Positions 1,725-41,079 of a stretch of DNA of 45,983 nt are shown piece after piece. This stretch comes from Alphaproteobacteria bacterium MarineAlpha9_Bin7 (GTDB lineage: Bacteria; Pseudomonadota; Alphaproteobacteria; UBA7887): NCBI GenBank assembly GCA_002938115.1, contig PTKD01000001.1, positions 1 to 45,983 of the forward strand, read 5' to 3'. The notes under the pieces are model-generated. The model did no database searches. It was not told where the DNA came from and worked only from the letters and a program-made list of their open reading frames with translations. Numbering within the stretch: position 1 is the stretch's first letter; each line of letters starts with the position of its first letter. The position numbers and the translations under genes were made by a program.

Positions 1725-2855
1725 CTACCTGCTTAATTTATGTCCCTTGGCTTTGGCTGTCGGGGCATGCTCCGGGAAGAGTGCCTGTAATCCCGACGCA
1801 GAAGCCTCGGAAACCCCGCGTTCTGTTATCAGGCCGCTAATTAAGCGGGCCGGCGTGACGTCAAAGGCGTAATTAGCGGCGTTGGTGCCGTCAGGTGTGA
1901 GTTGGACCGTGGCCAACGACCCATCCACGTTTCGCCCGGTGATATGCGTCACTTCACGGATGGCACGCTGCTCGATGGGTATTTCATTTAAACCATCGCT
2001 TATCGACCAATCGATGGTAGATGACGGCAATGCAACATAGAATGGTATGTCGTTATCCGTTGCTGCTAGAGCCTTTAAGTAAGTCCCAACTTTGTTCGCC
2101 ACATCTCCCTTGGCAGTTGTTCGGTCGGTGCCAACAATACATAAATCTACCTCTCCTTTTTGCATGAGATGACCACCTGCATTGTCGGCAATGACGGTGT
2201 GGGGAACGCCGTGCTGGCCTAGTTCAAAAGCTGTCAAAGCTGCACCTTGATTCCGTGGCCGAGTTTCATCAACCCAAACATGAATTAACAAACCAGCGTT
2301 GTGGGCCGCGTATATGGGAGCCGTTGCGGTGCCCCAGTCGACGGTTGCAAGCCAACCAGCATTGCAGTGAGTGAGAATGTTGATTGGTTTTCCCATCGGT
2401 TTGCGGTCCGAAATTGTTACAAGAAGCCCAAACCCATGGCGTCCAATGGCCTGGTTTGTTTCGATGTCTGCAGTACACATATTGGATGCATGGGTGTATG
2501 CAGTGTCGACACGAAATTTTCCTTCGATATTGCGGAGTACTCGCCGCATTTCGTGAATCGCCCATCGCAGATTTATCGCAGTTGGCCGAGTGTGTTCAAG
2601 CAGCTCGCATACTCGATCCAAACCGCCATCCGATGCGTCTTCGCGCATGCCAAGGCAGATCCCGTATGCCGCAGTGGCACCAATTAGCGGAGCGCCGCGC
2701 ACCATCATAGTGCTGATGGCTCTTGCGGCGTCGTCTGCTGTTTCTAGTGTGCTGATCTTGAAGTTGTGTGGCAATTGGGTTTGGTCGATGACGTTGACGC
2801 GCCACCCATCGTCCCCGACCCAAATAGTGCGATACTGCGTGCCATTCACTTTCAT
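1725..2855 (-). CDS. mtnA: S-methyl-5-thioribose-1-phosphate isomerase-like protein (eIF-2B alpha/beta/delta-related family)
   Basis: 376-aa ORF. The segments [23 protein letters not shown] and [18 protein letters not shown] match the MtnA family as I remember it. Its ATG overlaps the stop of the upstream glucan synthase gene (ATGA at 2852-2855). Confidence 0.8.
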
Positions 2856-5560
2856 GCGCTGGCTTTCTTTGGTGAGCTAGTGCTGGCGGTTGTCGATTTT
2901 TTATACGTGTGCACGTCTTTCTCTACAAAACCTTCGTCGATATGGTCGCGGGCGGTGGTCCAATTTTCAGTGGCGTTGTTGGCGGTCATCCATAATGCTG
3001 CCATATAAGGGATCGCCTGTATTGTTAAAATTAACAACCACAAACCGTTGGCAGGCTCGGTTATATCGCAGCGCAAGAAATAACCTACGGATACGACCAC
3101 AATTAAGAGGAGTAAGGCGGATTCCGTTGCGACCATTTTAAATGCCTCGCGCAGGCCGATATTAGATACATCCTTCGGGGTTCTTCGAAAAGGTGTACCG
3201 CTTGTTATTAAGCCGCTCAGGACAGCACGGGCTACGGTATGGCTGAGCGCTAGCCCTGCCAATGCTGCTCGACACCGGTCTGCCTTGGTGCAATTCAATC
3301 GCATTGAGTAAAGCGCGTAACTGCACGCCTGTTTTGCCAGGAAGATGAACAGAACTGGTACTAAGAATATTGCCGGTGGAGTCGGAAACTGAGCGGACAT
3401 TGTTGTCATCACAACGGTCCAAACCAATGCGCTGATGGTGAAGAGGAGGCCGCCTGCATCCGCGAGCCAAGGAAGCCAGCCAGCAATGAAATGGTAACGT
3501 TGGGCTGGACTTAGCTGGCAAGGACGTAATCCGAGCAAGGCTAGACCGTGGTGCTTAAGAATTTGCATGGCGCCGTAAACCCATCGAAAACGTTGGCTTT
3601 TGTATGCGCCAAAGTCATTGGGCAATTGTCCTCGGCCGAATGAATGGGGTACGTAAGCTGAATGCCAGCCGGACTCAAGTAGGCGAAGCCCTAATTCGGC
3701 GTCTTCTGTGATACACCATTCACCCCAGCCACCGACGCGCTCGAGCGCCATTTTTCGAATTAGGGTCATTGTGCCGTGCTGTATAATGGCGTCGGCTTCG
3801 TTACGTTGCACCATGCCTATCTGAAAAAACCCTGCGTATTCCCAAAAGCATTTTCGTTTGAAGTTGTTGAGGTGAGGCGACAAGTGGTCTTGCGGGGCTT
3901 GTACTAACGCTATGGATTCATCTTCAAATAGAGGGACAAGTGTGCGTAACCAGTCCGGTTCCACTACATAGTCGCTATCCACTACGGCAATAATTTCGGC
4001 TCTATTGTCGGCAAATTCGTGAGCTAGATTTAGTGCGCCGGCCTTAAAGCCCGGGCAATGATCGCGGTGAATAAAACGAAACCGAGACCCTAGATGTGCG
4101 CAGGCGGATTCAATTGGGCGCCAGCGGCTTGGGTATCGGCAATTATTGCTTATCACAATCACTTCAAAATTTGGATATTCAAGGCCAGACAAGGAAGTGA
4201 GGGTTCGTACTACAATTTCGGGTGGTTCATCGCTGCATGGTACATGTATGGAGACGAACGGAGCATGCGCCAGGGGTGAGGAACTGGTGTTATGAAACCG
4301 GCGCTGTGGCTTACGCCAAGCAACGTTAGCAACCTGGACGAGATCAGAAATGAAAAGCGCATACAATATCCATTGGCTGATTATGAGGATTAGCCAGATT
4401 GTCAAACCAAGTGGGCTCAAATAGTAGTCTGTGAGCATCATTGATGGGCACAACATCGCCGCCACGCAACCTTGGAAACAAATTCCAATCAACAGTGCTT
4501 GTTGTATGGATATCTTTGGAAAATACTGCAGATAAATTGTCTGAATGGTTCCGCCTATAACAAGCGCAAAGAGTGCCCAATAGGCCCAGTTGGTGCGCTC
4601 CCTCACGGGGCCAATCAGCTCCCATTTAGGGTTCCGGCGAGAATCAAATATCCCCCAGTGTGCACCCACCCTGCCTTCTATGGCTGTTTTCCAGGGTTGG
4701 TCATAAGCTTCAAGTAACACGTAGTCGATATTGTTTTCTTCGGCATAGGAAAGAAAATTGCGAACAAAATAGGCTTGATTGGTACGGGAAGGTTTTGCAC
4801 CTCCGATGCGCCTACCCGCCGAGGGCCAACCGACTTCTGTTAGCACAATCGGTTTGTCTGGATACGCTTCCCGCAGCTGTTGTAGGCGGTGATCGATGTA
4901 CGGGATTGCTTGGTTGACCGGAACACCTTCCCAATAGGGCAAAATGTGCACCGCAAGAAAATCTGTGGCGGCAGCCAGCATCGGATGGTCAAGCCAAATA
5001 TGCCAGGGCTCCGCAGTGCTCACAGGTTTTCTGGTGGCAGCACGTACCAGTCTGATGTGGCTTCGAAGTGTATCTGGTGTAACTGAGTTGCGGAGTAGTG
5101 CCTCATTCCCGACCAGTACGCGTGTAACATTTTCTTGCCCTTGTGCAAGCCCAATCAGAGCTGAAAGTTCACCTCTATCGTGTTCCGGATCCACCCCAAT
5201 CCAAGCGCCAGCCAACACTTGAATGCCCATATCGGCCGCTTGTTCAGCAAGATCGAGCATAGGCCCCTGCATACTATATGTTCGGATCAGGTTGGTGATA
5301 CCAGCCAGCTGCCGGGTGTCACGGGCAACCGTGGACGCTTGCGGTAGCGTGTCGGTAGGGCTTTGATGATGTTCGTAGGGGCTGTAGGCAATCCCGCCAA
5401 TCGGTCCATTCCAACTTGGAAAGAAATTTGGAGGATTGAATGTGAACCACAAGATGAAGCTGGCTACCGCAGGCAGTAAAACGGCGACACCATTCTTTAT
5501 GACTTTGTGGCTCGGTGTGGAGCAGCGCCCGTTGTGAGGATTTGCGTGTCGGGAAGGCAC
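2852..5560 (-). CDS. NdvB-type bifunctional beta-1,3-glucan synthase (GH17-like domain fused to a processive GT2 domain, multi-pass membrane protein)
   Basis: 902-aa ORF. The N-terminal TM helix is followed by a GH17-like domain with the VGNEAL and LTEVGWPS glutamate contexts. A hydrophobic multi-TM block follows, then a GT2 domain ([34 protein letters not shown] = QxxRW) and C-terminal TM helices. Confidence 0.8.
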
Positions 5561-5564
5561 TTCG

Positions 5565-7181
5565 CTATTGCCTTATTGCTTGCCAACTCGAATCAAAGCT
5601 TTGCAGCAAAAGCGTGTGTAATTCGTCTAATCGGCCGAGTGCCGGTCGTGCCGGGCGGAGCCCTCTTTGGAAACCGGAAATTGTGAATGGCTCCAAAAGA
5701 GCTTCATCACGCACAAAAATATGCACCGGTGTGACCCAACGCGCATCCGCGCCAGCCACCAATGAAGGAGGTTGGTGGTCGCCGACCGCGATGACGATGG
5801 GATTTTGATCAGCGGTTATTCGCAGAAGACCACCCAGTAACTCTAGGTCATACTTTATTGCTGTGGTGTAGGCAGGTTGAAAATTGCTCCAGTCAAGGGA
5901 GTTCTGTAACGCATTTGAGAGCGTTTCCTCCTCATAGGGTGTAGACGAGAGTACGCGCCACCAGTCGGATTGGTAGGGAGGCATTGGGGCGAATGGCATG
6001 TGGCTACTAATAGTAGCGAAGAAAGTAAAGAGTGGGCGTCGATTTCTCTTGTGACCCTCGGCTCGGTAGAATTGGGCAAAACTATATTGGTCTGGTATTT
6101 CCCACCAACCAAAGGCAGGACCCCGATATTTAAGTGAAGCGGCGTCCCAGATTTTGTTGTAGTTATAAAATGCGCCCTCAGGCCATGCCATCTTTAGTCC
6201 CGGCATCAACGCAACCGCGCGATACCCTGCATTTTGGAAATATTTTGCAAGCGTTTGGCGATCGGTGGTTAGCAAAAGTTGATACTCATGTTGCGTAGTA
6301 ATCCAGGTCCCAGTCATCAGTGTGGCATGTGAGAGCCATGAGGCGCCGCCGAACGTTGGGCTCTCATACAGAGCCGTTACTGCATGCCAGCCATCTTTCT
6401 CTACGTTCTTTGCAAGGGCATCAATAGATGGTGCCAGTGCTTTGTCATGGTCCAACGTGTCAAAAACTACTGCCCCGTACGACTCGAGGAAAATCAGATA
6501 GGCATCCTTACCTTCGAGTCGAGAAAGATCGGAACTTAGGTTCGGTTGTGCCGCAAACTGATCATTTACTGAGTGGCCCGTGACGGCATCGTAAATAAAA
6601 TTCAACTGACGGATGTAGGTCAAGCTCACTGGAACTGAGAACCATCTTTCGGTGGTGATTGTCCGACTCGTCATCCCAACGACATAAAGCGTCAATGCCG
6701 ACGCTGCCAAGCCGATTAGGCTGGCGCGCAGTAACGGTTTTTCTGTAGCTTTGATGATTACGGTTATTGCCCACCAAAGGCCAAAGAATAAAGCGGTGAT
6801 ACCAACGATGATGCCCAGCACAATAGTGACGATTAACCACAATTCGTTGGCATCTAAGATCATTAACGCCACTCGCGGAAAGTGTTTTGCATCCCAGTAG
6901 AGGTTGATAGGGCGACCGTACAGGGCGGGCGCTATCACATCAGCGTATCGGCCAAGAGCCAGTATTACGAACGTTATCGCCATAATTTGCTGAGCACGCA
7001 CTTGCGTGCCTCCAAACCAAGTGCGTCGTACAGCAAGGAGCAGTAAAATCGCTGACATCTCCACCGATAATTCCGGCCTGAGCTGAATCCACGGCGTAGG
7101 CCAAACGTTATGAAAACTTAGTGAGAAATTTAGCGCTGACACAGCAAAAAGCACCAAGAACGCTTGCAACCAACCAAACAT
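5565..7181 (-). CDS. membrane-anchored sulfatase/LTA-synthase-like (alkaline phosphatase superfamily) phosphotransferase
   Basis: 538-aa ORF. About 5 N-terminal TM helices precede a soluble domain with motifs typical of LtaS/OpgB/EptA-type enzymes (LIFLESYG, TISSHMPF, AVGDHQP). It ends 4 nt upstream of the glucan synthase start. Confidence 0.7.
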   Translation of the reverse strand: MFGWLQAFLVLFAVSALNFSLSFHNVWPTPWIQLRPELSVEMSAILLLLAVRRTWFGGTQVRAQQIMAITFVILALGRYADVIAPALYGRPINLYWDAKHFPRVALMILDANELWLIVTIVLGIIVGITALFFGLWWAITVIIKATEKPLLRASLIGLAASALTLYVVGMTSRTITTERWFSVPVSLTYIRQLNFIYDAVTGHSVNDQFAAQPNLSSDLSRLEGKDAYLIFLESYGAVVFDTLDHDKALAPSIDALAKNVEKDGWHAVTALYESPTFGGASWLSHATLMTGTWITTQHEYQLLLTTDRQTLAKYFQNAGYRAVALMPGLKMAWPEGAFYNYNKIWDAASLKYRGPAFGWWEIPDQYSFAQFYRAEGHKRNRRPLFTFFATISSHMPFAPMPPYQSDWWRVLSSTPYEEETLSNALQNSLDWSNFQPAYTTAIKYDLELLGGLLRITADQNPIVIAVGDHQPPSLVAGADARWVTPVHIFVRDEALLEPFTISGFQRGLRPARPALGRLDELHTLLLQSFDSSWQAIRQ

Positions 7182-7213
7182 ATCAGGTCAATTCGGCTGT
7201 TTTCTCGGGGTCG

Positions 7214-7825
7214 CTATTGTTGGACCGCTTCAAGTTCGATGATCAATTGGATTTCATCTCCCACCCACCCGTTGGCTACCGCATAATTCATATCGTAGGA
7301 GCTGCGCCGAAAGGAGCCACGTGCTGAAATGCCGATGGTGTACTTCTTGTGACCGAATGGGTAGATCCCACTTTTGTTCCAGGTTATATCTAGGTTCATG
7401 GGCAGAGTTTTTCCGGTGAGCGTTAAAAGTCCGTTTACTATGCCAGTACGCTCCCCGGTTCGTTTACTTGAGGTGCTAGAAAAGGTCATCTCCGGAAATT
7501 CTCGGACATTTAAAAAGTCAGCGCTACGTAGATGATCATCTCGTTTTTTGTGGTTTGTGAATAGGCTATCAGTATGGATCAGCACGTTGAGTTCTGATAG
7601 CAACAAAGAATCTTCATCGAAAATAAATTGGCCTTCTGCTTTCCGAAACATGCCAAGTATTTTTGCGTAACCAATATGCTCAACTAAAAAACCGATACTG
7701 AAGTGATCTGAGTCAATAATATATTCGGCTGGCGCCGCTTGTGGTTGGCTGAGTCTTATGCCTAAAAGAAAAGCCGCGGTGATTGTGCAAGCGGCTAAGG
7801 TGAAAAATCGATTGATTGCACTCAT
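7214..7825 (-). CDS. YceI-like periplasmic (polyisoprenoid-binding family) protein
   Basis: 203-aa ORF with a signal-peptide-like N-terminus. The YceI-like pattern is present: IDSDHFSIGFLVEH...GMFRK..G.F.FDE ... RDDHLRSADFLNVREFPEMTF. Its start overlaps the upstream stop (ATGA at 7822-7825). Confidence 0.8.
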   Translation of the reverse strand: MSAINRFFTLAACTITAAFLLGIRLSQPQAAPAEYIIDSDHFSIGFLVEHIGYAKILGMFRKAEGQFIFDEDSLLLSELNVLIHTDSLFTNHKKRDDHLRSADFLNVREFPEMTFSSTSSKRTGERTGIVNGLLTLTGKTLPMNLDITWNKSGIYPFGHKKYTIGISARGSFRRSSYDMNYAVANGWVGDEIQLIIELEAVQQ

Positions 7826-8592
7826 AAGGAATCTCCCGTCGGGGAAGTGGTAGTGAGTAGGAAAAATATATCTCGTCCAAATGATATAATTAGAAAACTC
7901 AGTGCAACACCGTTGACGCTACTGGCCGTAAATGGTTCTACGATGGGGCAAAGGGCAAATAATAGTGCCATGGATTGAGTTGCACATGCTGCCTGGCGAA
8001 GTCGGCTTGGCGGCAAGGATCGTCGAAGTGCGTGCACGGGCCAACTTGCGATCATGAACAGATAACGCATGACGCCTGCTAGCAACACCCAGGCGCCTAC
8101 TTTGTCGTATTCCCAAACAAGTACAGCGAGGATCAAAATAAACGCAGCATCAACCTCCATATCAAAGCCCGCGCCAAAAGCACTTTGTATGTTTAACCGA
8201 CGGGCGATCCAGCCATCGATCCCATCGAATACAAAAGCCGTTGCCGCAAGCGATAGTAACAACCACAAGCCTGCGTCGGTGATCATTGAAGAATGTCCAA
8301 CTACGCCTGCAAAAAGAGCTACTATAACAGCGCGGGCGAGCGTGATGCGATTCGCCGCTCCAAATTCTTTTCGTGGAACGTGGTGCCGCAGTTGAATCAA
8401 CACCAATATACTTATCGCCGCGTACACCCCAAGAGCTTGAAATAAGGATTGTAAAGGGAGGCCCCATAGAAACTGGAATGCGTGAACTCCTGCAAACAAT
8501 GCCACCATACCGAGGCCAAAGTTTGCAAGAGTGCCTGCGTTGGGCGAGTACAGCACTGAAAATATGACCCAGTTTCTTGTTAAGAGTGGCAA
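7822..8592 (-). CDS. CDP-alcohol phosphatidyltransferase family protein (substrate unknown)
   Basis: 256-aa polytopic ORF. It carries a perfect DG(x)2AR(x)8G(x)3D(x)3D signature: DGWIARRLNIQSAFGAGFDMEVD. Confidence 0.8.
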   Translation of the reverse strand: MPLLTRNWVIFSVLYSPNAGTLANFGLGMVALFAGVHAFQFLWGLPLQSLFQALGVYAAISILVLIQLRHHVPRKEFGAANRITLARAVIVALFAGVVGHSSMITDAGLWLLLSLAATAFVFDGIDGWIARRLNIQSAFGAGFDMEVDAAFILILAVLVWEYDKVGAWVLLAGVMRYLFMIASWPVHALRRSLPPSRLRQAACATQSMALLFALCPIVEPFTASSVNGVALSFLIISFGRDIFFLLTTTSPTGDSL

Positions 8593-8663
8593 AGTAGCTC
8601 CAATCCCAGTTAAGGGCGACTAACATGCCGCTTATTTTGCTCCGAAGACAAGAGTTAGTGGCT

Positions 8664-8698
8664 ACTGTGACAGTGTGATTCGTCGACGCTGATCGACG
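8664..8698. promoter_or_regulatory. two short palindromes in the divergent intergenic region (candidate operator sites)
   Basis: ACTGT-G-ACAGT lies at 8664-8674. CGTCGA-N6-TCGACG lies at 8681-8698. Both sit in the roughly 113-125 bp spacer between the divergent 7822-8592 and 8718-9743 genes. Confidence 0.3.
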
Positions 8699-8717
8699 GG
8701 TAACTTTGTGGAGGCAT

Positions 8718-9743
8718 ATGCTTATGAAGAACGAAAATGGCGCCTGGGCGTATTGGGTGCAGGAGCCTGGAAGGAGTAAATTGGTATCCATGTCGTTGGC
8801 GAAGCCAGCGGAACACGAAGTGAGAATTCGAACACTTTATAGCGCTATCAGTTTAGGTACGGAACGACTCGTCTTTTCCGGCGCCGTTCCGGAGAGTCAG
8901 TACGAGTCCATGCGTGCGCCCTTCCAAGACGGAGATTTCCCTGGTCCTGTAAAGTACGGCTACTCAAACGTAGGGCGTGTCGAAGCAGGGCCACAGGAGT
9001 TGATCGGGCGCGTTGTGTTTTGTCTTTATCCGCATCAAGATAATTATGTTGTGCCGCAGGATGCCGTGGTGCCGGTGCCGAAAACAGTGCCTGCAACACG
9101 CGCTGTATTAGCCGCAAATATGGAAACTGCCATCAACGGGTTGTGGGATGTGCCACCAGTCGTTGGTAGCAAGGTCATTGTAGTGGGAGCCGGTGTGTTA
9201 GGATGTTTGATGGCGTATCTTGTGAGCAAGATACCTGGTGTCGAAGTACAGCTGGTCGACATTGATTCGGAAAAAGCATCAGTGGCCAAGGCGTTTGGCA
9301 TTCAGTTCGCTGAACCTGGCTTGGCGTCAAGTGAAGCAGACATGGTAATTCACGCATCCGGTACCTCTGAAGGCCTGGCTACGGCCTTCCAGTTGGCGGG
9401 TTTTGAGGCAACGATTTTAGAGATGAGTTGGTTTGGGAGTCACACTGTTTCCTTGCCTCTGGGTGAATCATTCCATGTGAAAAGATTGCGACTGCAATCC
9501 TCCCAGGTTGGTACTTTGGGAACAACACAACGCGCGCGTTGGGATCGTCGCCGGCGTCTCATTTTAGCACTTGAACTCCTTACTGATGAAATGCTTGACA
9601 AGTTGTTTTCCGGCCAGAGTGACTTTGAAAATTTACCTTCGACGATGGAAAGGCTGATGTTGGAGCCGCAGGGGCACTTATGCCACAGAGTTGTTTATCC
9701 TGGGGCAGATGTGAATGCTTCTTCAGGTGAGGGGGGTGAGTAA
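8718..9743 (+). CDS. MDR-superfamily dehydrogenase, zinc-less BchC-like subgroup
   Basis: The ORF opens at TTG 8706, but ATG 8718 or 8724 follows a GGAGG and is the likelier start. [14 protein letters not shown] and [10 protein letters not shown] replace the Cys and GHE zinc ligands of classic Zn-ADHs, as in BchC-type enzymes. The Rossmann motif VVGAGVLG is present. Confidence 0.7.
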
Positions 9744-10156
9744 TGTACAGTTTATCAGTCCGCGATCATTTTATGGTTGCGCACAGTTTTGATGGAAGAG
9801 TTTTTGGTCCTGCACAAAGATTACACGGCGCGACATACGTGGTTGATTTGGTGTTCAAGCGACGAGAGCTCGACGACAATGGCTTGGTAGTTGATATTGG
9901 ACTAGCTGGCACTGTTTTGCGGGAGGTATTAGACGATTTGAATTATCGCAATCTTGATGATGAGCCCGATTTCTCTGGCTCCAATACTACTACGGAAATG
10001 CTTGCTGGGGTGATTTTTGGGCGAATGCGTCAACGAATTGAGGTGGGAGCACTTGGCCCAGAAGGTTCCACCCTAACTGGAATGTCAGTTACTCTGCATG
10101 AGTCTCATCTGGCGTGGGCGCGTTATGAGGCCGACTTCAGCATTCCAAGCGAATAA
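9743..10156 (+). CDS. COG0720 (6-pyruvoyl-tetrahydropterin synthase / QueD)-like protein with divergent active site
   Basis: 137-aa ORF whose ATG overlaps the upstream TAA (TAATG). The fold signature FMVAHSF ... [11 protein letters not shown] resembles the PTPS/QueD pattern AAH ... CxxxHGH. The Cys and the second His of HGH are replaced. Confidence 0.7.
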
Positions 10157-10208
10157 AGATGCTACTGGGTATAAACCTAAGTTGCCCGATTTCTGAAATG
10201 ATTTCGCG

Positions 10209-11285
10209 TTGGGTGTAGGGTGTGTGGGTGTGCGTTCGCTTCATTTCGTTTTGCCCGGTGATCCTGATGCCCTAACGGGTGGATATATTTACGATAAGCG
10301 CATTATCGATGGATTGCGGAGCAACGGTCGGAAAGTTTACCGTCATTTACTGCCAAATGGTTTCCCGTTCCCCAACGCCCGTACCCTGGAGGAGTCATCA
10401 AGAATTATTCGTAGAATTCCAGACGATAGTCTTGTGGTGGTTGATGGACTTGCGCTGGCGCCTCTGTATCAGCTAATCGGTGAGGAAGCAGCGCGCCTCA
10501 TTTTGATTGGATTGATTCACCACCCGCTTTCCGAGGAAACAGGCATCTCTGCCGCTCAAAACTCCTTTCTTCGAATCCAGGAGCAACGCGCCTTAGCCGC
10601 TTGCGCACACATTGTCGTGACAAGTTCGACCACGGCGTCCACCTTGATCTCGGACTATGATGTTACCCCGCATCGTTTGACAGTGATCGAGCCAGGAGTC
10701 GATCTAGCACCTCTTGCATCGGGATCCTGTGACGACACCCTAAATCTTCTCTGCGTGGCTACCCTAACCCCGCGTAAAGGTCATGAGTTGCTACTCAATG
10801 CTTTAGCGCCGCTGCAGGACTACTCATGGCGAATGTCTTGTGTGGGTGATCTAGAGAGAGATATGGCGACGGCCACCCGAGCACAGCAGTGTGTTACGAG
10901 ACTTGGGCTTGCCGATAGAGTTGTGTTCCACGGAGCACTTGGCCGATCTGAGCTTGCCGAACAATATCACTCTGCCGATCTATTTGTATTGGCTTCGAGA
11001 TACGAGGGTTATGGTATGGCTTTGGCCGAGGCGTTGGCGTGTGGCCTGCCTATTGTGGCCACTTGCGTTGGCGCGGTTCCAATCACTGTGCCGTCCAACG
11101 CAGGTCTATTGGTCCGACCGGACAAGAGTAAGGCGTTGACTTTTGCCCTCAAGAGATTTTTTACGGAGCCAAGGCTCCGTGAACGTTTAAGGGCAGGAGC
11201 TAGGGCTAGCCGGGTGCGACGTAGGTCGTGGGATGTCGCTGTGCGGGGGATGGAAAAGCAGGTATTTGGTTTGTTTATAAAATGA
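10209..11285 (+). CDS. glycosyltransferase, GT4 (group 1) family
   Basis: 358-aa ORF. The true start may be GTG 10230, giving VRSLHFVLPGD. The C-terminal retaining-GT motif is SRYEGYGMALAEALACGLPIVAT (E-x7-E). Confidence 0.8.
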   Translation: MGVGCVGVRSLHFVLPGDPDALTGGYIYDKRIIDGLRSNGRKVYRHLLPNGFPFPNARTLEESSRIIRRIPDDSLVVVDGLALAPLYQLIGEEAARLILIGLIHHPLSEETGISAAQNSFLRIQEQRALAACAHIVVTSSTTASTLISDYDVTPHRLTVIEPGVDLAPLASGSCDDTLNLLCVATLTPRKGHELLLNALAPLQDYSWRMSCVGDLERDMATATRAQQCVTRLGLADRVVFHGALGRSELAEQYHSADLFVLASRYEGYGMALAEALACGLPIVATCVGAVPITVPSNAGLLVRPDKSKALTFALKRFFTEPRLRERLRAGARASRVRRRSWDVAVRGMEKQVFGLFIK

Positions 11286-12148
11286 ACGGTTTTTCCGCGG
11301 CATGGCTAGATTTGCGGGAGCCCGCCGATGTAGCGGCCCGTGCACCCGAGCTATTAGAGAGGCTAAGCGAGTGGTCGGGTCAACACGAGCACGTTACTGT
11401 GGCTGATCTTGGTTCAGGAACAGGGAGTTGCTTGCGTGCGATTGCGCCGCACATGAGTCCGCGTCAGAGTTGGCGGCTAATAGACCGTTCAGGTGTGCTG
11501 CTGGACGAGGCCGTGACGCGCCTCTCGAAGTGGGCGCATCAGAGATCATTGTCGGCCCGAGTGGAGCAAAATGTCTGGCGATTTATGGGAAAGATTTCAG
11601 ACTATTCTGTTGTGTTTGAGGAACAAGATCTGGCAACTGGACCTGGCAATACTGGATCCGTGGTTGATCTTGTTACTGTTTCTGCGGTGCTTGATTTGGT
11701 GTCGAAGGAATGGTGCAGTAATTTAGCACGGTGGTGTTCAGAAAAAGGTGCTGCTTTGTACACCTGCCTGAATTATGACGGGCAATTCCATTTTGCTCCG
11801 TCGCATCCTGATGATTCAGATGTGCGTAGCGTGGTCAATACACACCAGCGAAGCGATAAAGGAATGGGTCCGGCACTTGGTTCTAGCGCGATTGAGGTGT
11901 TGGCTGAAGCGTTGTCGGCAGCGAAATATCAATTCGTAGTTGCACCTAGTCCGTGGCTGCTCGGGTCGGATAACAGTGCTTTGCAGTCGGCTTTAGTTAG
12001 AGATTGGAGCGACTTAGTTTTTCGGCAAGGAGATAAGTACGCGGCACGAGTGTCCAGGTGGAGAAATTTTCGGATGGCCGCAATCAAAGCCCGTCAATCG
12101 CATCTGAGTGTAGGCCACGTAGATCTCTGGGCGTGGCCCAAAGCATGA
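11282..12148 (+). CDS. class I SAM-dependent methyltransferase
   Basis: The internal ATG at 11282 overlaps the GT4 stop (ATGA). SAM-binding motif I is VADLGSGTGSCL. Confidence 0.75.
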   Translation: MNGFSAAWLDLREPADVAARAPELLERLSEWSGQHEHVTVADLGSGTGSCLRAIAPHMSPRQSWRLIDRSGVLLDEAVTRLSKWAHQRSLSARVEQNVWRFMGKISDYSVVFEEQDLATGPGNTGSVVDLVTVSAVLDLVSKEWCSNLARWCSEKGAALYTCLNYDGQFHFAPSHPDDSDVRSVVNTHQRSDKGMGPALGSSAIEVLAEALSAAKYQFVVAPSPWLLGSDNSALQSALVRDWSDLVFRQGDKYAARVSRWRNFRMAAIKARQSHLSVGHVDLWAWPKA

Positions 12149-12172
12149 TAGGCGCATTCTAGAGTATTCGAT

Positions 12173-13006
12173 TTAGAGAACGTCCTCGGAAAGTGTGCAA
12201 TCGAACAAAATGTCGTTTCCTAGACGAAATTGGCGGGAATTTGGACGAAATGCCTTGTTAGCTTTCGTAGCTGCACGCAATCGAAGGCCTGGTTGACCGG
12301 CGCCAAAAAGCACCGGTGCAATAGTGATTTGGAGGCGGTCTACGGCGCCTGCTCTTACAAAGCGTGAAACAGTATCTCCGCCGCCTTCAATAAAAAGACG
12401 TTTTAGGCCGAGAGTGCACAACGCGTCTATACACGCGCTTGCGGGTAGGTTCTGTGTTTTGGAGGGCACTACCACGATTTCTACATGATTGCCCATGCGA
12501 CTGTGATTGTTTTTGGCACTTGAAGCGCAAAGTACCAAGGTGCGTGCTGACGGATCCCTGAATAATGCATGCTGTGACTGAAGCCGGCGCCTGGGATCTA
12601 TAACCACTCGGACTGGGTTGGCCCCCGGAACATGTCGTGTTGTAAGTTGTGGATCATCGTGACGTACGGTGTTCGCGCCAACTATAACTGCGTCAAATAA
12701 AGCGCGCATGCGATGCAGGTGAATAATATTTTCTGTCCCCGTGACGTAGTGAGAGTCTCCACTAGCGGTTGCGATGAAACCGTCCAGACTTTGGCCAAGG
12801 TGTGCGACCACAAGTTTAGAACTTTTTGGTCCACCAACTAGCGGCGAATAGAGATCGAGTAATTGGACGGCATCGTCGGATAAAGGATGTGAACAGTGCC
12901 AAACGCCTAGGCCATCAATCTTGATCATACTCGAAGTGTTGTTGAGAAGTTTGCCGCAAACTGACGACCACGCGACATCGGTGTCAATTATCGGATCAGC
13001 GTTCAT
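12173..13006 (-). CDS. RibD C-terminal domain (pyrimidine reductase / DHFR-like fold) protein without a deaminase domain
   Basis: Motifs GQSLDGFIATASGDSHYVTG, VGANTVRHDDPQLTTR and IEGGGDTV fit RibD_C. The start is either ATG 13006 or 13042, and both overlap the end of the upstream creatininase-family gene. Confidence 0.75.
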   Translation of the reverse strand: MNADPIIDTDVAWSSVCGKLLNNTSSMIKIDGLGVWHCSHPLSDDAVQLLDLYSPLVGGPKSSKLVVAHLGQSLDGFIATASGDSHYVTGTENIIHLHRMRALFDAVIVGANTVRHDDPQLTTRHVPGANPVRVVIDPRRRLQSQHALFRDPSARTLVLCASSAKNNHSRMGNHVEIVVVPSKTQNLPASACIDALCTLGLKRLFIEGGGDTVSRFVRAGAVDRLQITIAPVLFGAGQPGLRLRAATKANKAFRPNSRQFRLGNDILFDCTLSEDVL

Positions 13007-13829
13007 CTTGTAAATCGGTAAGCGGGAACCGTGCCATATCATCTAGGATAAAGATTAATTCATTCACCATGTGTTCTATGGTGGTCTCTCCCCGTTTTGC
13101 ATCGGCACGTGCAGCGTTTCCGCATGCGCCAGATTTGTGCAAGTCTTGTGCCTGCCATGCAAATCGTGCTGGGCCATTTGGTGCAATTCGATTGTATGGT
13201 TTGTCCAGCCTTATCGTGTTTGGTACGAAATTTTGCGCATGCTCCATGCGCACAGATTCAGGGCGCAAATGAAGCATCATTGATGTTTCTACCTCTCCCG
13301 CGTGCAACCCGTAACGGAGCTCGTCGTCGCTGAAAAGGCCCGACGGCGCGCCCAGTCGGAACGTGTCTGTGCCGACTACGAGCAGTTGATTTTTTGCACG
13401 TAAACGCTGTGCCACGATGTCAACGATCTGTGGCTGGCCACCATGGCTATTAAGAATCAGTATTTTTCGAATCCCTGTTTTACATACTTGTTCGCCGATT
13501 TGGACCCATAGCTTAATGAGGGTCTCCGCAGTTGCAGTTAATGTACCTGGGAAATCGCTGTGCTCGCTGCTTTCGCCAATTAACATTGGTGGGAGCGCCA
13601 AAAGAGTTAAGGTTTTGGGCGTTTTTGCTATGAGGTCGCGGACTATGCCCTCACTGATGCAGGTATCGGTATCAAGTGGCAGATGGGGACCATGTTGTTC
13701 AATAGCAGAGACAGGTAAAAGTGCAATTGTTCGTGCGGGTTCCAAAATCATAAAATCATTGGTCGTGAGATCCCGCCAATAACCGCTGGAGAGCACGGTT
13801 AGATATTTGTCTCTCGGATTTCCGACCAT
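12996..13829 (-). CDS. creatininase-family metal-dependent amidohydrolase
   Basis: 277-aa ORF. The family metal and catalytic motifs appear intact: SAIEQHGPHLPLDTD, LNSHGGQ, HAGEVETS. Confidence 0.8.
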   Translation of the reverse strand: MVGNPRDKYLTVLSSGYWRDLTTNDFMILEPARTIALLPVSAIEQHGPHLPLDTDTCISEGIVRDLIAKTPKTLTLLALPPMLIGESSEHSDFPGTLTATAETLIKLWVQIGEQVCKTGIRKILILNSHGGQPQIVDIVAQRLRAKNQLLVVGTDTFRLGAPSGLFSDDELRYGLHAGEVETSMMLHLRPESVRMEHAQNFVPNTIRLDKPYNRIAPNGPARFAWQAQDLHKSGACGNAARADAKRGETTIEHMVNELIFILDDMARFPLTDLQDER

Positions 13830-16324: not shown

Positions 16325-17233
16325 CTAAGATAGTTTCTCGATAGGTGTCCCGTGCCAACCAGAACCACGTTTTTCCCAGTAAAGATCACGTAACGCTCGA
16401 GTGATGGGGCCTACCAGTCCGTCACCAATAATCTGGTTGTTTACAGTGGTGACTGGAATGATGCCGCCAGCTGTTGTTGATATAAACACTTCTCCGCTGC
16501 TTGTGATTTGCGTTGCAGGGATTGATGTGGCCGTACATCGTATCTCCAATTCAGCGCAAAGCTCGAACAATGTTCGTCGGGTCATGCCGTCCAACACGCC
16601 GCTTTCCGGCGTGGTTATGCTGCCGTTTTGGACTAAAAACAGATTGAATCCAGGGCCTTCTGTTATGTGGCCATCTCGATCTTGGAGGACGACGGTATCG
16701 CCACCGCGATCGAAGGCATCTAACAGCCCCATTTCAAAATCCAACCAGTGATAATGCTTAATTGTTGGATCAACGGACTCAGGCGGGATGCGGCAAATCG
16801 AACTAACGATCAAATGCAGGCCTTTATCTTGTTGCTGTGGGGTCGCTATCCAAACATAAGGAATACAAAAGGCGTAGAACTGGTTTTTGCAACGCCTTGG
16901 ATCTCGAATTCCGAGTGGTGGCACCCCTCGAGTCATGATGATTTGCACGTACGCATCCTTGAGACCTGTGCGGCAAACACACTCGTTCATTATGGAATGA
17001 ATCTGGTTGCGGCTGTACGGACAAGTCATTCTTAGTTTGGCAACGTTTCTTTCAAATCGATCCAGGTGATCATCTAGTCTGAAAAAAAGCCCGTCCCAAA
17101 CCGATATTGTGTCCTGATTGGCATCAGAGCGTAAGAAACCCCAGTCTAGAATAGGAATTCGCGCCTGGTTTATCGGCTGGTATTCTCCGTCGATGAAGGC
17201 GACCCCGGCTTTGTGCTGGTTTGACATCGGCAT
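16325..17233 (-). CDS. class IV (branched-chain / D-amino-acid type) aminotransferase
   Basis: 302-aa ORF with fold-type IV PLP enzyme features (RLDDHLDRFERN..., ITEGPGFNLFLV, TRRTLFEL). Confidence 0.75.
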   Translation of the reverse strand: MPMSNQHKAGVAFIDGEYQPINQARIPILDWGFLRSDANQDTISVWDGLFFRLDDHLDRFERNVAKLRMTCPYSRNQIHSIMNECVCRTGLKDAYVQIIMTRGVPPLGIRDPRRCKNQFYAFCIPYVWIATPQQQDKGLHLIVSSICRIPPESVDPTIKHYHWLDFEMGLLDAFDRGGDTVVLQDRDGHITEGPGFNLFLVQNGSITTPESGVLDGMTRRTLFELCAELEIRCTATSIPATQITSSGEVFISTTAGGIIPVTTVNNQIIGDGLVGPITRALRDLYWEKRGSGWHGTPIEKLS

Positions 17234-27539: not shown

Positions 27540-29507
27540 TTGACGGGACCTCTCTTGGGATTGATATTTGATATCGTGAACATAGCACGGAGCGAGCGAA
27601 AGGGGCATCCGGAAGTGGTTGTTGCTGGAGGTCAGGAGCAAGATATCGTCGGCGTGGAAGTGATCCGCAGGAACGTTGGCACTCTGCCAAGCCAGCCTGG
27701 GGTATATCGAATGCTCGATGCGCGTGGAAAGGCACTTTATGTCGGGAAAGCCCGAAATCTCAAGCGAAGGGTATCTAGTTATGCGAGGGGAGCGTCTCAT
27801 GGTGGTCGTATCGCTCAGATGGTTTGCCAAATCAGCACCCTTGAAATCATCACTACTCACACTGAGGCAGAGGCACTCTTACTTGAGGCGAATCTGATAA
27901 AGAAATTAAAGCCACGCTATAACGTTGTCCTGAGGGATGATAAATCACATCCATATATTTTACTTTCTGGCGACCACGCTTGGCCCAAATTGGTCAAACA
28001 TCGTGGTGCTCGATCACGCAAAGGGGAGTATTTTGGCCCCTTCGCGTCGGCTGGTGCCGTTAACCGTACTTTAAATGCCCTGCAACGCGCGTTTCCCTTG
28101 CGAACTTGCTCCGACAGCGTGTTCTCAAATCGATCGCGCCCGTGCTTGCAATATCAGATTAAGCGGTGCACAGCACCGTGCGTAGATTACATCTCTCGCG
28201 AAGAATACGCGTATTTGGTCGGAGAAACACGAGACTTTCTTTCAGGCAAAAGCGCTAAGGTAGCTAACGGCCTCGCTGCTCGTATGCAGGAAGCCGGCGA
28301 GCAACTTGAATTTGAGACTGCATCTATTCTGAGGGACCGGATTCGTGCGCTTGCCCACATACAATCACATCAGGGTATTAACGTTAGGTCAGTTGATGAT
28401 GCGGATGTGATAGCAGTGGATCAACAGGCTGGACAAACTTGTATCCAAGTATTCTTTTTCAGGGGAGGCAGTAATTATGGCAATCGCGCCCATTTCCCCA
28501 CACACCACCGGGAGAATTCGGTTGCCGAAGTCCTGGGGCCCTTTGTCGGTCAATTTTACGAAGGCCGCAACGCTCCCAAGAGTGTGCTTTTAAGCCACGA
28601 TATTGAACATGTGAAGCTTGTCGAAGAGGCTCTGAACATACAGAGTAGTCACCGGGTGCGATTGCTTGTTCCGCGCCGCGGTGAAAAGCGTCGACTCGTC
28701 CAGCACGCCTTAACAAATGCTCGTCATGCTCTGGACCGTAGGCTGTCGGAGAGCGCTTCGCAACGACGTTTGCTGGAAGGCTTGGCCGAGACCTTGGAGC
28801 TAGACTTTCCGCCGAATCGTATAGAGGTTTATGACAATAGCCATACCTCCGGCTCCCAGGCCGTAGGTGCCATGATCGTTGCAGGTTTGGGTGGGCTGAC
28901 TAAGAATGCGTACCGAAAATTTAATATTCGCGTCGATTCTAAACCTGGAAGTGGTGCCGAGATCAAACCTGGTGATGACTATGGCATGATGCGACAGGTG
29001 CTTACGAGGCGGTTCGCGCGTTTGCAAAAAGAGGATCCAGATCGCACCGATAAGCAGTGGCCGGACTTGGTGCTGGTCGATGGAGGTGCGGGGCAGCTTT
29101 CGGTCGCGGGCGAGGAGTTTGCGGATTTGGGCGTTCGTGATGTGGCCCTAGCTGCGGTAGCTAAGGGTCCCGAGCGAGCTGCTGGACGTGAACGTATCTA
29201 CCTTCCGGGACGTGCTCCAATAATGCTACCCCCCTCAGATCCGGTGCTTTATTTTCTACAGCGTTTACGAGATGAGGCTCATCGCTTCGCGATAGGGACG
29301 CATCGAACCCGACGTTCGCGTGATCTCCGGCGCTCTGAGCTGGACGAAATTCTGGGCGTCGGGTCAAAAAGGAAACGTGCACTTTTGCATCGTTTTGGCT
29401 CGGTTAGAGCAGTTGCGGATGCGGGGTTGCAAGATCTTCAGGAGGTAGTTGGCATTAACCACAAGGTAGCGCAACTGATATACAATCATTTTCACAGCAA
29501 TGACTGA
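27540..29507 (+). CDS. uvrC: excinuclease ABC subunit C
   Basis: GIY-YIG domain ([29 protein letters not shown]), UVR domain ([16 protein letters not shown]) and a C-terminal HhH region. The exact start is uncertain; TTG 27540 is the earliest option. Confidence 0.95.
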
Positions 29508-29576
29508 GCTCTGCACATGCGGAGCTTTTTGCCACGCAATAAACTCTTTTTTTATGAGGTGCGCGACTACACCACT

Positions 29577-30143
29577 ATGATCCATCGTCTTCCAAATATT
29601 CTGACAATTCTTCGAATAATTTTGATCCCTTTGCTCGTTTTGGGTTTTCAGCTTCCGGGTATGTGGTGTAACTGGGTGACCTTATCTATTTTCGTGATTG
29701 CGGGAGCCACAGATTATTTTGATGGCCTTTTGGCGCGGCGGCTGGAAGCAACGACGGATTTTGGGCGTATGTTAGACCCTATCGCGGACAAGATGCTGGC
29801 TGTCGCAGCTATTGCGATGCTTCTGTCAGTCGGAAATATACCTTTAATACCGGCGTTGATAATAGTTTGTCGGGAAATCCTGGTTTCAGGCCTTCGAGAG
29901 TATTTGGCCAACCTGTCAATAGGGATACCGGTAACCTCACTTGCCAAATGGAAAACCGCTGTGCAATTTGCTGCATTGGCGATGTTGCTGGCTGGTGATG
30001 CAGTCCGCTGGCCTGCCGGAGAAGTTGTCGGCATGTCTGAGATTGGCTCGGGTTTTATTTGGCTAGCAGCGGCGTTAACTGTGGTCACGGGCTACGGGTA
30101 CTGGAGAACAGGATATCGTCATATAATCCGCGATAAAAATTAG
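29577..30143 (+). CDS. pgsA: CDP-diacylglycerol--glycerol-3-phosphate 3-phosphatidyltransferase
   Basis: The internal ATG at 29577 (MIHRLPNILTILR) gives 188 aa. The signature is DGLLARRLEATTDFGRMLDPIAD. Position after uvrC is typical. Confidence 0.85.
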   Translation: MIHRLPNILTILRIILIPLLVLGFQLPGMWCNWVTLSIFVIAGATDYFDGLLARRLEATTDFGRMLDPIADKMLAVAAIAMLLSVGNIPLIPALIIVCREILVSGLREYLANLSIGIPVTSLAKWKTAVQFAALAMLLAGDAVRWPAGEVVGMSEIGSGFIWLAAALTVVTGYGYWRTGYRHIIRDKN

Positions 30144-30154
30144 GGTGCCTGTCT

Positions 30155-30673
30155 GTGAATGTGCTTGGTATTGCTGGTTGGAGTGGTAGTGGGAAAACTA
30201 CGTTGGTCACGCGGTTGCTTGTGGAGTTAGTCGGGAGAGGAGTTTCGGTATCGACAGTAAAACATGCCCATCATGACTTTGACATTGATCAGGTGGGGAA
30301 AGATTCCCATAAACACAGGCAAGCCGGCGCCCGCCAAGTGATGGTTAGTTCACGGGTGCGGTGGGCGTTGATCGAAGAATTAGGGGCGTCACCCGAACTT
30401 GGCTTAGATGAACTGCTGAAGCAAATGAGCCCTGTCGATTTGGTTTTGGTTGAAGGTTTTAAATTCGGCCATCACGAAAAAATTGAGGTCTATCGGAAGG
30501 GTTGCAGTAATTCACAATTGTTTCCGGATGACCCAAATATAATTGCTGTCGCGAGCGATGTCCCCTTGTCTGGGGTCAACCGGCCGGTCCTCGATTTAAA
30601 CAACGTAGCTGCGATTGGGGAGTTTATCGTTGCTCGTTGGGATTTGAGTGTCCAAAAAAATGACTCAACTTAG
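30155..30673 (+). CDS. mobB: molybdopterin-guanine dinucleotide biosynthesis adaptor protein
   Basis: 172-aa ORF with Walker A GWSGSGKTT and KHAHH. Confidence 0.85.
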   Translation: MNVLGIAGWSGSGKTTLVTRLLVELVGRGVSVSTVKHAHHDFDIDQVGKDSHKHRQAGARQVMVSSRVRWALIEELGASPELGLDELLKQMSPVDLVLVEGFKFGHHEKIEVYRKGCSNSQLFPDDPNIIAVASDVPLSGVNRPVLDLNNVAAIGEFIVARWDLSVQKNDST

Positions 30674-31940: not shown

Positions 31941-31972
31941 CTTTTTATAAAGTGGAGCACAAGTAAGAACCT

Positions 31973-33663: not shown

Positions 33664-33761
33664 TGCAGTTGCCGGGGTTGACGGGTGTTTGCGGCCTTGC
33701 CAAATGACGGTTGCGTTGGCTAACACCCACCATCATATGTTGTCAACAACAGGCCATTTAC

Positions 33762-35272: not shown

Positions 35273-35356
35273 TTTATCCTTTCTTTGTTAACGCCTGGTC
35301 CGATGCCAACTGCTATGCTAAGCGAACACCATGCACGTGTGGCGCAAAATAATCCA

Positions 35357-36648: not shown

Positions 36649-36665
36649 CGTTAGGTCTTGCTATC

Positions 36666-40064: not shown

Positions 40065-40068
40065 GCTG

Positions 40069-41075: not shown

Positions 41076-41079
41076 TCAC

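Follow-up and report, generated by a model that had tools for sequence, protein, structure and literature searches.

A conserved gene cluster around a zinc-less PTPS-IV protein in a marine alphaproteobacterium, with a possible role in forming a GTP-derived lipid head group

The closest described relative of the locus considered here, positions 8593 to 13829 of a 45,983-nt stretch of contig PTKD01000001.1 from Alphaproteobacteria bacterium MarineAlpha9_Bin7 (the whole stretch is called the window below), is a gene cluster of Streptomyces coelicolor that carries SCO6650, a protein of the PTPS-IV subfamily, and SCO6655, a homolog of GTP cyclohydrolase II (GCH II). In the work of Spoonamore et al. 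from 2006 and 2008, SCO6650 is reported to lack both zinc and PTPS activity and to keep its pterin-binding residues, and the nearby SCO6655 reportedly releases a formylated product, FAPy; Spoonamore and Bandarian are likewise reported to have found that a Tyr-to-Met change turns GCH II into such a FAPy-releasing enzyme. We know of no purpose for the FAPy-forming GCH II paralogs of Streptomyces, and PTPS-IV, a very large family with a crystal structure, has gone well over ten years with no function assigned to it. The motif FGPAQ is given as the mark of this subfamily within COG0720 (PMC5445326, PMC5041015), AGeNNT places PF00925 (GCH II) and PF01872 (RibD_C) among its gene neighbours (PMC5445326), and a 2016 review, citing unpublished work, states that PTPS-IV is involved in F420 synthesis (PMC5041015). 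A further point of reference is BrbF, a creatininase-family formamidase for 2-amino-5-formylamino-6-ribosylaminopyrimidinone 5'-phosphate (AFRPP) characterised in Sinorhizobium and Brucella, where it is essential for riboflavin synthesis and where its gene sits in a MarR/CobW context (PMC9478397).

The locus in the window comprises six genes, encoding an MDR dehydrogenase, a PTPS-like protein, a GT4-family glycosyltransferase, an S-adenosylmethionine (SAM)-dependent methyltransferase, a stand-alone RibD_C reductase and a creatininase-family amidohydrolase, and is the marine alphaproteobacterial version of the S. coelicolor cluster. Comparison with 80 related loci leads us to propose, as an even call, that these genes supply the biosynthetic part of a conserved system, some ten genes in size, that makes a GTP-derived, sugar-bearing and methylated membrane-lipid head group decorating the cell envelope.

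Conservation and extent of the cluster

All six open reading frames (ORFs) of the first-pass annotation were found in the window, and reading of the sequence supported the single plus-strand operon and confirmed the convergent arrangement that it had described. The dehydrogenase stop overlaps the PTPS start in TAATG (9741-9745), the glycosyltransferase stop overlaps the methyltransferase start in ATGA (11282-11285), and the stop codons of the methyltransferase and the RibD_C reductase converge 24 nt apart (12149-12172) on a minus-strand pair whose overlap is 47 nt in the listed frames and would be 11 nt should RibD_C begin at its second ATG. The overlap of the first two genes indicates a translationally coupled pair.

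Scanning of genomes gave 335 places with a gene for a PTPS-IV relative of 60-76% identity, of which the best 80 were fetched as the loci to which all counts below refer. Counts were obtained by tblastn with representatives from the window and from actinomycetes; clustering of ORFs by blastp had placed RibD_C in 66 loci, a figure inflated by high-GC shadow ORFs, and the tblastn count of 41 was used instead. The loci come from Streptomyces, Actinomadura, Dactylosporangium, Actinoplanes, Pseudonocardia, Thiohalocapsa, Rhodoferax, Rhodospirillaceae, Competibacter, Gemmatimonadota and others. The PTPS gene was present in all 80 and the MDR gene, adjoining it, in 79; the other families were GT4 (74 loci), a CDP-alcohol phosphatidyltransferase (64), the methyltransferase (63), a flippase-like protein of family LPG_synthase_TM (56), GCH II (52), RibD_C (41), creatininase (38), a sulfatase-like protein (21) and YceI (6). 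The identities of the two families missing from the window, GCH II and LPG_synthase_TM, were verified by Pfam.

In Streptomyces, the typical order is the CDP-alcohol phosphatidyltransferase gene, then those of the MDR, PTPS, GT4, methyltransferase and flippase-like proteins, then creatininase and GCH II, an arrangement that is compact, with no spare room, and agrees with the locus numbers SCO6648 to SCO6655. The flippase-like gene lies within the plus-strand operon, between the methyltransferase gene and those for creatininase or GCH II, and proteobacterial loci have YceI in its place. As the same genes occur in the same order across phyla, the arrangement is not due to chance. The six families thus do co-localise in other genomes, recurring with PTPS-IV in loci of Actinomycetes, Proteobacteria and Gemmatimonadota. 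The first-pass annotation had, however, drawn the unit too short: the conserved unit adds the CDP-alcohol phosphatidyltransferase, the flippase-like protein or YceI, a transferase of LtaS/EptA fold and, in related loci but not in the window, GCH II. Nor are RibD_C and creatininase universal members, since one partly takes the place of the other, depending on which type of GCH II is present.

Genes for a probable GTP-derived building block

At least one of the genes for GCH II, creatininase and RibD_C was found in 70 of the 80 loci. Three of the six families had originally been taken to point to GTP-derived pyrimidine or pterin chemistry, and this is reinforced by the presence of GCH II inside the cluster in 52 of the related loci; on the comparative evidence, a GTP origin of the building block is well supported. 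The residue at Tyr105 was read from the cluster GCH II homologs after alignment with E. coli RibA, whose numbering is used. Tyrosine was kept in 19 loci and replaced by Met, His, Leu, Lys or Cys in 33. A creatininase gene accompanied 31 of the 33 non-Tyr enzymes, the two exceptions being truncated contigs, versus 3 of the 19 Tyr-type enzymes (Fisher p = 1.2e-8, phylogeny not corrected for), and two further Tyr-type loci from cultured strains (Xanthomonas sp. and Agaricicola) were without creatininase. RibD_C showed the reverse distribution, with all 19 Tyr-type loci and 5 of the 33 others, so that the two genes largely alternate. That creatininase tracks the loss of the catalytic Tyr of GCH II fits a formamidase acting on a formylated GTP product.

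The creatininase-family protein of the window keeps the motifs EQHG, TD, EH, HGG and HAGExETS, which we take to be metal ligands, and residues E44, H46, D55, E89, H90, H129, H176 and E181 are invariant. Its score with the ArfB model was 30.2 bits, the cut-off being 180; it is predicted to be an ArfB/BrbF-like formamidase for AFRPP. The nearest structures to the RibD_C protein were 2,5-diamino-6-ribosylamino-pyrimidinone 5'-phosphate reductases (6P8C, 4.6e-25; 2AZN, 1e-21), and its score with pyrimidine-nucleotide reductases was far above that with the DHFR-like Rv2671 (91.8 vs 38.4 bits). It carries the conserved motifs GQSLDG, DDPQLTVR and VEGGG, has no deaminase domain, and is extended at its N-terminus by about 75 residues that are conserved in the Streptomyces copies as well. 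Scores stayed below the curated riboflavin cut-offs for TIGR00227 (129.9 vs 150.15) and for the archaeal reductase model TIGR01508 (111.7 vs 186.45).

Two side observations concern these genes. In Xanthomonas sp. AmX2 (L087:11773-12906) and Agaricicola taiwanensis (L088:10621-11775), the GCH II of the cluster is preceded by some 170 extra N-terminal residues, for which no Pfam match is on record and which resemble a degenerate RibB (DHBP synthase) domain. Furthermore, an extra phosphatase-type gene, of the endonuclease/exonuclease/phosphatase family, the histidine phosphatases or PAP2, lies by GCH II or RibD_C in three loci (L004:13108-13875, L032:13307-13969 and L088:11778-12536) and would fit the removal of a 5'-phosphate or a lipid phosphate.

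We consider it very unlikely that the RibD_C and creatininase genes are a housekeeping riboflavin module of BrbF type beside an unrelated glycolipid or polyol head-group operon, with PTPS-IV in a non-pterin role. The essential part of BrbF in riboflavin synthesis would agree with such a module, as would the lack of GCH II in the window, the position of the pair on the opposite strand and ten loci that have no GTP-module gene at all. Nevertheless, the same extended RibD_C subfamily (43-49% identity) occurs in clusters of Actinomycetes, Beta- and Gammaproteobacteria and Gemmatimonadota, GCH II lies inside the cluster in more than half of the loci, creatininase follows the active-site variant of GCH II, and the described MarR/CobW context of BrbF genes is unlike this cluster (PMC9478397).

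The PTPS-like protein matched PDB 3D7J, the structure of SCO6650 deposited as uncharacterized, over its full length (residues 1-130, 4.1e-49). In alignment with canonical PTPS, the catalytic Cys is gone and HGH has become HGA, with the loss of one zinc-binding His; the FGPAQ signature is present, and F21, G22, P23 and Q25, as well as His14, His28 and Glu85, are invariant in 28 diverse homologs. On this match and these residues the protein is assigned to the zinc-less PTPS-IV subfamily as an ortholog of SCO6650. A canonical PTPS or QueD identity, which calls for three zinc-binding His and a catalytic Cys (CxxxHGH or CxxxxxHGH), was rejected on the same residues and on a QueD score of 43.4 bits against a cut-off of 89.25. 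Its description as a degenerate PTPS thus held for the lost catalytic residues, but the protein is no orphan, and as PTPS-IV had already been named and had a crystal structure, parts of the cluster had been noted before. A homolog search that scored only the 8,000 candidates with most words in common with the query gave matches at E <=1e-10 for all of them, each a 90%-identity cluster and all generically named. RibD_C, one of the two AGeNNT neighbours, adjoins it in the window; the other, GCH II, is absent there and occurs in 52 of the 80 related loci. A search for PTPS-IV fusions gave only tandem triple-PTPS proteins, with no other domain. In P0361, P0367, P0368, P0378, P0398 and P0407 (373-855 aa), three or four stretches in tandem match PTPS-IV, at 34-43% identity with the protein of the window; a Pfam scan of P0361, P0367, P0368 and P0407 showed two or three PTPS domains in each and nothing else.

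The dehydrogenase gave only weak ADH_zinc_N/Rossmann matches in Pfam, and its best profile matches in the PDB were RspB, iditol 2-dehydrogenase, galactitol-1-phosphate 5-dehydrogenase, threonine dehydrogenase and sorbitol dehydrogenase, with idonate dehydrogenase also among them. An alignment of 31 sequences (mean column identity 57%) revealed the invariant motifs SxGTE, KYGY, PHQ and ETA, with Ser43 and Tyr78-Gly-Tyr80 invariant at what we take, by motif comparison and not by structural superposition, to be the zinc-ligand positions. The profile search and the alignment thus place the protein as a zinc-less enzyme of the polyol-dehydrogenase branch. A zinc-dependent MDR alcohol or polyol dehydrogenase was rejected, the catalytic zinc ligands (Cys, His, Glu/Cys) being replaced. 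An acidic residue directly after the GxGxxG motif suggests NAD as cofactor, and a ribityl-type polyol would be a natural substrate. The resemblance behind the earlier label 'BchC-like' is remote (TIGR01202, 39.5 bits; cut-off 291.25), and no bch genes were found in the window.

GCH I is a T-fold enzyme that rearranges and closes the ring after formate release, and the cluster might split this route: GCH II, with the formamidase where present, would give the diaminopyrimidine nucleotide, and either PTPS-IV would perform the Amadori rearrangement and ring closure or RibD_C would reduce and the MDR enzyme oxidise at C2', leading to a pterin of neopterin-phosphate type that bears a sugar and a methyl group and might also be bound to a lipid; in a variant, RibD_C may act as a pterin reductase. 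We hold this to be quite unlikely. PTPS-IV, without the zinc and the Cys of hydrolytic or triphosphate chemistry, does keep His14, His28 and the pterin-anchoring Glu, 26 creatininase-type clusters do without RibD_C, and, by chemical reasoning, oxidation of the ribityl C2' by a member of the polyol-dehydrogenase branch would recreate the Amadori ketone. The route is, however, a chain of reasoning throughout, no T-fold enzyme being known to do this; the RibD_C protein is nearer to pyrimidine-nucleotide reductases than to Rv2671, and the MDR enzyme is present in every cluster variant, including those without RibD_C.

The remaining two plus-strand proteins would tailor the product. The glycosyltransferase matched Glycos_transf_1 (5.6e-28) and Glyco_transf_4 (7.9e-09) in Pfam and scored under the cut-off of every NCBIfam equivalog, MshA and EpsE included. 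The methyltransferase gave only weak Pfam matches (E about 0.002), and a profile search of the PDB returned no useful match for it; its AlphaFold model (pLDDT 95.1) led Foldseek to class I methyltransferases, including phosphoethanolamine N-methyltransferases, mycolic-acid methyltransferases and RebM, and the GxGxG motif reads DLGSGTGS. On this confident model it is a divergent class I SAM methyltransferase. The original family calls were therefore upheld, by strong Pfam/NCBIfam matches for PTPS, GT4, RibD_C and creatininase, and by model and fold search for the methyltransferase. SCO6652, listed in a transcriptome paper as a hypothetical protein induced in differentiated mycelium, may be the methyltransferase of the S. 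coelicolor cluster, a tentative assignment by inferred numbering.

Membrane genes and the proposed product

A minus-strand operon (1725-8592), with gene spacings of -4 to +32 nt, diverges from position 8593 and is, in part at least, a component of the system to which the six genes belong. Its first gene encodes a CDP-alcohol phosphatidyltransferase with weak matches only to the PgsA, ClsA and PssA models and an intact catalytic motif, DGIDGWIAR-x8-G-x3-D-x3-D (DGIDGWIARRLNIQSAFGAGFDMEVD in the translation); we take the family to be multi-pass membrane proteins defined by D-x2-D-G-x2-A-R-x8-G-x3-D-x3-D. As a canonical pgsA-type gene lies after uvrC at 29517-30143, the cluster gene is a second, specialised paralog. 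In the related loci it is usually divergent from the dehydrogenase gene. The next product, with a score of 139.8 under the NCBIfam YceI cut-off of 232, is probably a periplasmic lipid-binding protein.

The third gene encodes the sulfatase-like protein, whose AlphaFold model (pLDDT 88.7) has N-terminal transmembrane helices and a catalytic domain of alkaline-phosphatase fold. The top Foldseek matches were LtaP, LtaS, MCR-1, EptA, PbgA and GacH, with probability 1.0. According to their entry titles, LtaP/LtaS, MCR-1, EptA and GacH take a phospho-alcohol off a membrane phospholipid and pass it to an acceptor; PbgA has the same fold, and its entries concern a complex with lipopolysaccharide and a role related to cardiolipin, not head-group transfer. 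The motifs GGxSW...H and GDHQP are invariant, and S280, invariant within GGxSW, would be the nucleophile. A homolog bears the JGI label 'phosphoglycerol transferase MdoB-like'. Judged by its modelled fold, the protein is a putative LtaS/EptA-fold phospholipid head-group transferase. The trio of phosphatidyltransferase, YceI and sulfatase-like genes recurs in the proteobacterial loci L003, L004, L006, L037 and L086, and in the last of these, which is of gammaproteobacterial type, it adjoins RibD_C and the methyltransferase, GT4 and PTPS genes. In one metagenomic protein, P0235 (743 aa), an N-terminal CDP-alcohol phosphatidyltransferase domain, 40% identical to that of the window, is fused to a sulfatase-like protein; this is a single instance and may be a gene-calling artefact.

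The fourth gene encodes a GH17-GT2 membrane glycosyltransferase of NdvB-type architecture. NdvB-type synthases make cyclic beta-1,3-glucans with phosphoglycerol groups donated by phospholipids. The gene is syntenic only in L006 and L037, which are close relatives of the window, and it was rejected as a general cluster member. The sulfatase-like and GH17-GT2 genes also occur as an adjacent or overlapping pair (44% and 48% identity) in L083 and L084 (10001-14241), in an unrelated lineage with no PTPS cluster nearby, which suggests a glucan-decorating pair in its own right; this independent recurrence suggests a glucan as the acceptor of the transferase. The protein is thus a putative beta-glucan synthase and, in this lineage, a possible maker of the acceptor glycan. 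The last gene, for MtnA, is likewise syntenic only in close relatives and is probably a passenger.

From the observed gene content, family membership, loss of catalytic residues, gene order, GCH II/creatininase association and folds, we infer a pathway in eight steps, including all its substrates and products, the order of steps four to six and the final acceptor. First, a GCH II-type enzyme, encoded in the cluster in most genomes and elsewhere in this one, would open GTP; a GCH II without the catalytic Tyr would release the formylated product (FAPy/AFRPP). Second, the creatininase-family enzyme would deformylate this to 2,5-diamino-6-ribosylamino-pyrimidinone 5'-phosphate, and third, the stand-alone RibD_C enzyme would reduce ribosyl to ribityl, in the archaeal/fungal order and with no deamination. 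Fourth, the coupled NAD-type, zinc-less MDR enzyme and the zinc-less T-fold protein PTPS-IV would remodel the pterin-like polyol. Fifth, the GT4 enzyme would add a sugar and the SAM methyltransferase a methyl group. Sixth, the CDP-alcohol phosphatidyltransferase paralog would attach the alcohol so formed to CDP-diacylglycerol, from which an unusual phospholipid would arise. Seventh, this lipid would be exposed at the outward face of the membrane with the help of the flippase-like LPG_synthase_TM in most actinomycetes and of the periplasmic YceI protein here. Finally, the LtaS/EptA-fold enzyme would move the phospho-head group onto a glycan of the envelope, in this organism probably the beta-glucan of the co-operonic GH17-GT2 synthase.

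The first-pass annotation had proposed a glycosylated and methylated small molecule of pterin or ribitylaminopyrimidine type. Its GTP-derived chemistry is retained here, but as the phosphatidyltransferase is as conserved as the methyltransferase and comes with the flippase-like or YceI protein and the LtaS/EptA-fold protein, a product bound to lipid or envelope is likelier than a free small molecule, and a lipid destination is moderately supported. That the product is instead free and soluble (a cofactor, pigment or signal), with the membrane genes unrelated or serving export, we regard as rather unlikely. Known pterin glycosides are soluble and their glycosyltransferases are GT-B enzymes of similar size; Glu85, the pterin-anchoring residue, is invariant in PTPS-IV, and SCO6650 is reported by Spoonamore in 2008 to keep its pterin-binding residues; and four Thiohalocapsa loci (L005, L009, L012 and L017) have the MDR, PTPS, GT4 and methyltransferase genes only. 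Against this stand the phosphatidyltransferase, conserved like the methyltransferase (64 vs 63 of 80 loci) and normally divergent from the same promoter region, the LPG_synthase_TM gene inside the plus-strand operon, and the phosphatidyltransferase/LtaS-like fusion, which ties the genes to lipid head-group chemistry.

Several points weigh against the proposed head-group pathway. The sample consists of the best 80 of 335 places, and ten loci with the MDR-PTPS core, the four from Thiohalocapsa among them, have no gene of the GTP or lipid module within 10 kb. In the GTP module, the association of creatininase with residue 105 is uncorrected for phylogeny, and 26 of 31 clusters of Streptomyces/Actinomadura type with creatininase have no RibD_C, so that the reduction may come from elsewhere, or the ribityl intermediate is perhaps not general; as the window has no GCH II, the source of the substrate here is an assumption. 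In the membrane half, the Foldseek TM-scores of the sulfatase-like model are moderate (0.35-0.5), and since this gene occurs in only 21 loci, and also with GH17-GT2 away from PTPS clusters, its product could use an ordinary phospholipid; CDP-alcohol phosphatidyltransferases can, moreover, also form soluble phosphodiesters. No product has been observed, and the chemistry of the MDR, PTPS-IV, GT4 and methyltransferase proteins is unconstrained by these data. Nothing was found to support or explain the F420 link of PTPS-IV, which our pathway leaves unexplained. Apart from these points, L012 has a large GT2 membrane glycosyltransferase gene upstream, and no informative alternative context was found around the outlier loci L012, L018, L063, L064 and L077 (a P450, cytochrome bd genes, a NACHT protein).

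A wider claim, that several phyla make a new class of phospholipid with a glycosylated and methylated GTP-derived head group of pterin or ribityl-diaminopyrimidine type, assembled by the zinc-less T-fold/dehydrogenase pair, attached through the dedicated CDP-alcohol phosphatidyltransferase, flipped and in some lineages, this one included, moved by the LtaS-like enzyme to periplasmic beta-glucan or another envelope polymer, is possible but doubtful. Full-text literature searches turned up no description of the pathway. Single proteins of the cluster had already attracted notice (through the structure of SCO6650, SCO6655 enzymology, the naming of PTPS-IV and the AGeNNT neighbourhoods), and the window is a new proteobacterial variant. 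The dedicated phosphatidyltransferase, flippase-like and LtaS-fold genes, together with the tracking of the GCH II Tyr by creatininase, give a testable hypothesis of a GTP-derived head group or envelope decoration. If true, it would mean a new branch of GTP-derived metabolism and, in bacteria abundant in soil and sea, a new chemistry of membrane or envelope, with S. coelicolor, Xanthomonas sp. and Inquilinus limosus as tractable carriers.

Locus layout and comparison with known systems

The features of the two divergent operons and of the convergent pair are listed in Table 1.

Table 1. Features of the cluster and of the divergent operon in the window
Feature	Position	Strand	Remarks
S-methyl-5-thioribose-1-phosphate isomerase (MtnA)	1725-2855	-	Last gene of run; PRK05720, 474 bits (cut-off 271); 4-nt overlap with previous gene
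GH17 + GT2 membrane glycosyltransferase, NdvB-type architecture	2852-5560	-	Glyco_tranf_2_3 1.2e-32, Glyco_hydro_17 1.3e-06; begins 4 nt past end of sulfatase-like gene
Membrane-anchored alkaline-phosphatase-superfamily (sulfatase-like) protein	5565-7181	-	Pfam Sulfatase 1.4e-05
YceI-family protein	7214-7825	-	PF04264 6.2e-35; signal-peptide-like N-terminus; 4-nt overlap with upstream gene
CDP-alcohol phosphatidyltransferase paralog	7822-8592	-	PF01066 3.5e-17
Divergent intergenic region	8593-8723		Between phosphatidyltransferase and dehydrogenase operons; both promoters presumed inside
MDR dehydrogenase	8724-9743	+	Listed ORF 8706-9743, from TTG 8706; probable true start ATG 8718 or 8724 by homolog alignment
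PTPS-IV T-fold protein	9743-10156	+	Pfam PTPS 2.5e-24
GT4-family (GT-B) glycosyltransferase	10209-11285	+	Start codon uncertain by a few codons
Class I SAM-dependent methyltransferase	11282-12148	+	Start overlaps stop of GT4 gene
Stand-alone RibD_C reductase	12173-13042	-	Pfam RibD_C 9.4e-37
Creatininase-family amidohydrolase	12996-13829	-	Pfam Creatininase 4.5e-67

Alignment of the divergent intergenic region with L003, L037 and L006 revealed no convincing conserved motif, and the region has no match to the sigma-70 consensus; promoter and terminator scans gave matches not above shuffled expectation. An Rfam scan of the window detected no RNA family and hence no flavin mononucleotide (FMN) or other riboswitch. 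The PTPS protein of the window occurs exactly in Tara Oceans contigs, and a near-identical locus (L003, 99%) is found in a metagenome-assembled genome of an uncultured member of the Alphaproteobacteria. Elsewhere in the window there are a housekeeping run at 27540-32706 (uvrC, the pgsA-type gene, mobB, moeA and moaE) and an ordinary cytochrome c maturation (ccm) region at 35204-42498, encoding an ABC-type ATPase, CcmB, a CcmC-like protein, CcmF, a thioredoxin-like protein, CcmH and a TPR CycH-like protein. Of two class IV aminotransferase genes (16325-17233 and 32755-33726), the former lies just past trxB and a LysR regulator gene; these two border the cluster and keep their synteny in L006 and L037.

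The statement that the cluster fits no known pathway among those for folate, queuosine, riboflavin, biopterin glucoside and toxoflavin also stood. By Pfam, the ToxA-E, FolB/K/P and QueC/E families were absent from the window ORFs of at least 150 aa (all but four of 42) and from the conserved cluster families, and the window has no GTP cyclohydrolase gene and no further riboflavin gene such as those for the deaminase, RibH or RibE.

Among pterin glycoside pathways (biopterin glucoside, cyanopterin and tepidopterin), the likeness is that a protein of the PTPS family works alongside a reductase or dehydrogenase and a glycosyltransferase of GT-B type, and cyanopterin carries methylated sugars. Those pathways, however, need a competent PTPS and GCH I, whereas here the catalytic residues of PTPS are gone and the related loci use GCH II. 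The archaeal/fungal-order riboflavin steps of ArfA, ArfB and ArfC, together with BrbF, share with the proposed entry module the succession of a formylated GTP product, a creatininase-family deformylase and a RibD_C-type reductase acting before deamination. In contrast, the window cluster is without deaminase, lumazine synthase, DHBP synthase and riboflavin synthase, its genes sit among glycosyltransferase, methyltransferase and lipid genes, and its ArfB and archaeal-reductase scores are below the cut-offs.

The membrane half resembles the systems that decorate lipoteichoic acid and osmoregulated periplasmic glucans (PgsA with LtaS, OpgB/CgmB and GacH; NdvB glucans with phosphoglycerol), in which a CDP-alcohol phosphatidyltransferase makes the donor lipid and a membrane-anchored enzyme of alkaline-phosphatase fold moves the phospho-head group to a glycan; in the window an NdvB-type synthase is encoded in the same operon. 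Here, the donor head group would be an alcohol made by the cluster, not glycerol or ethanolamine, and the sulfatase-like protein has only 12-16% sequence identity to LtaS and EptA. The closest system remains that of SCO6650 and SCO6655, to which the window is tied by the full-length match to 3D7J, the FGPAQ motif, the missing catalytic Cys and the loss of one zinc-binding His. It differs from that system in lacking GCH II and the flippase-like gene, in having both RibD_C and creatininase, and in adding YceI, the LtaS-fold transferase and the GH17-GT2 synthase.

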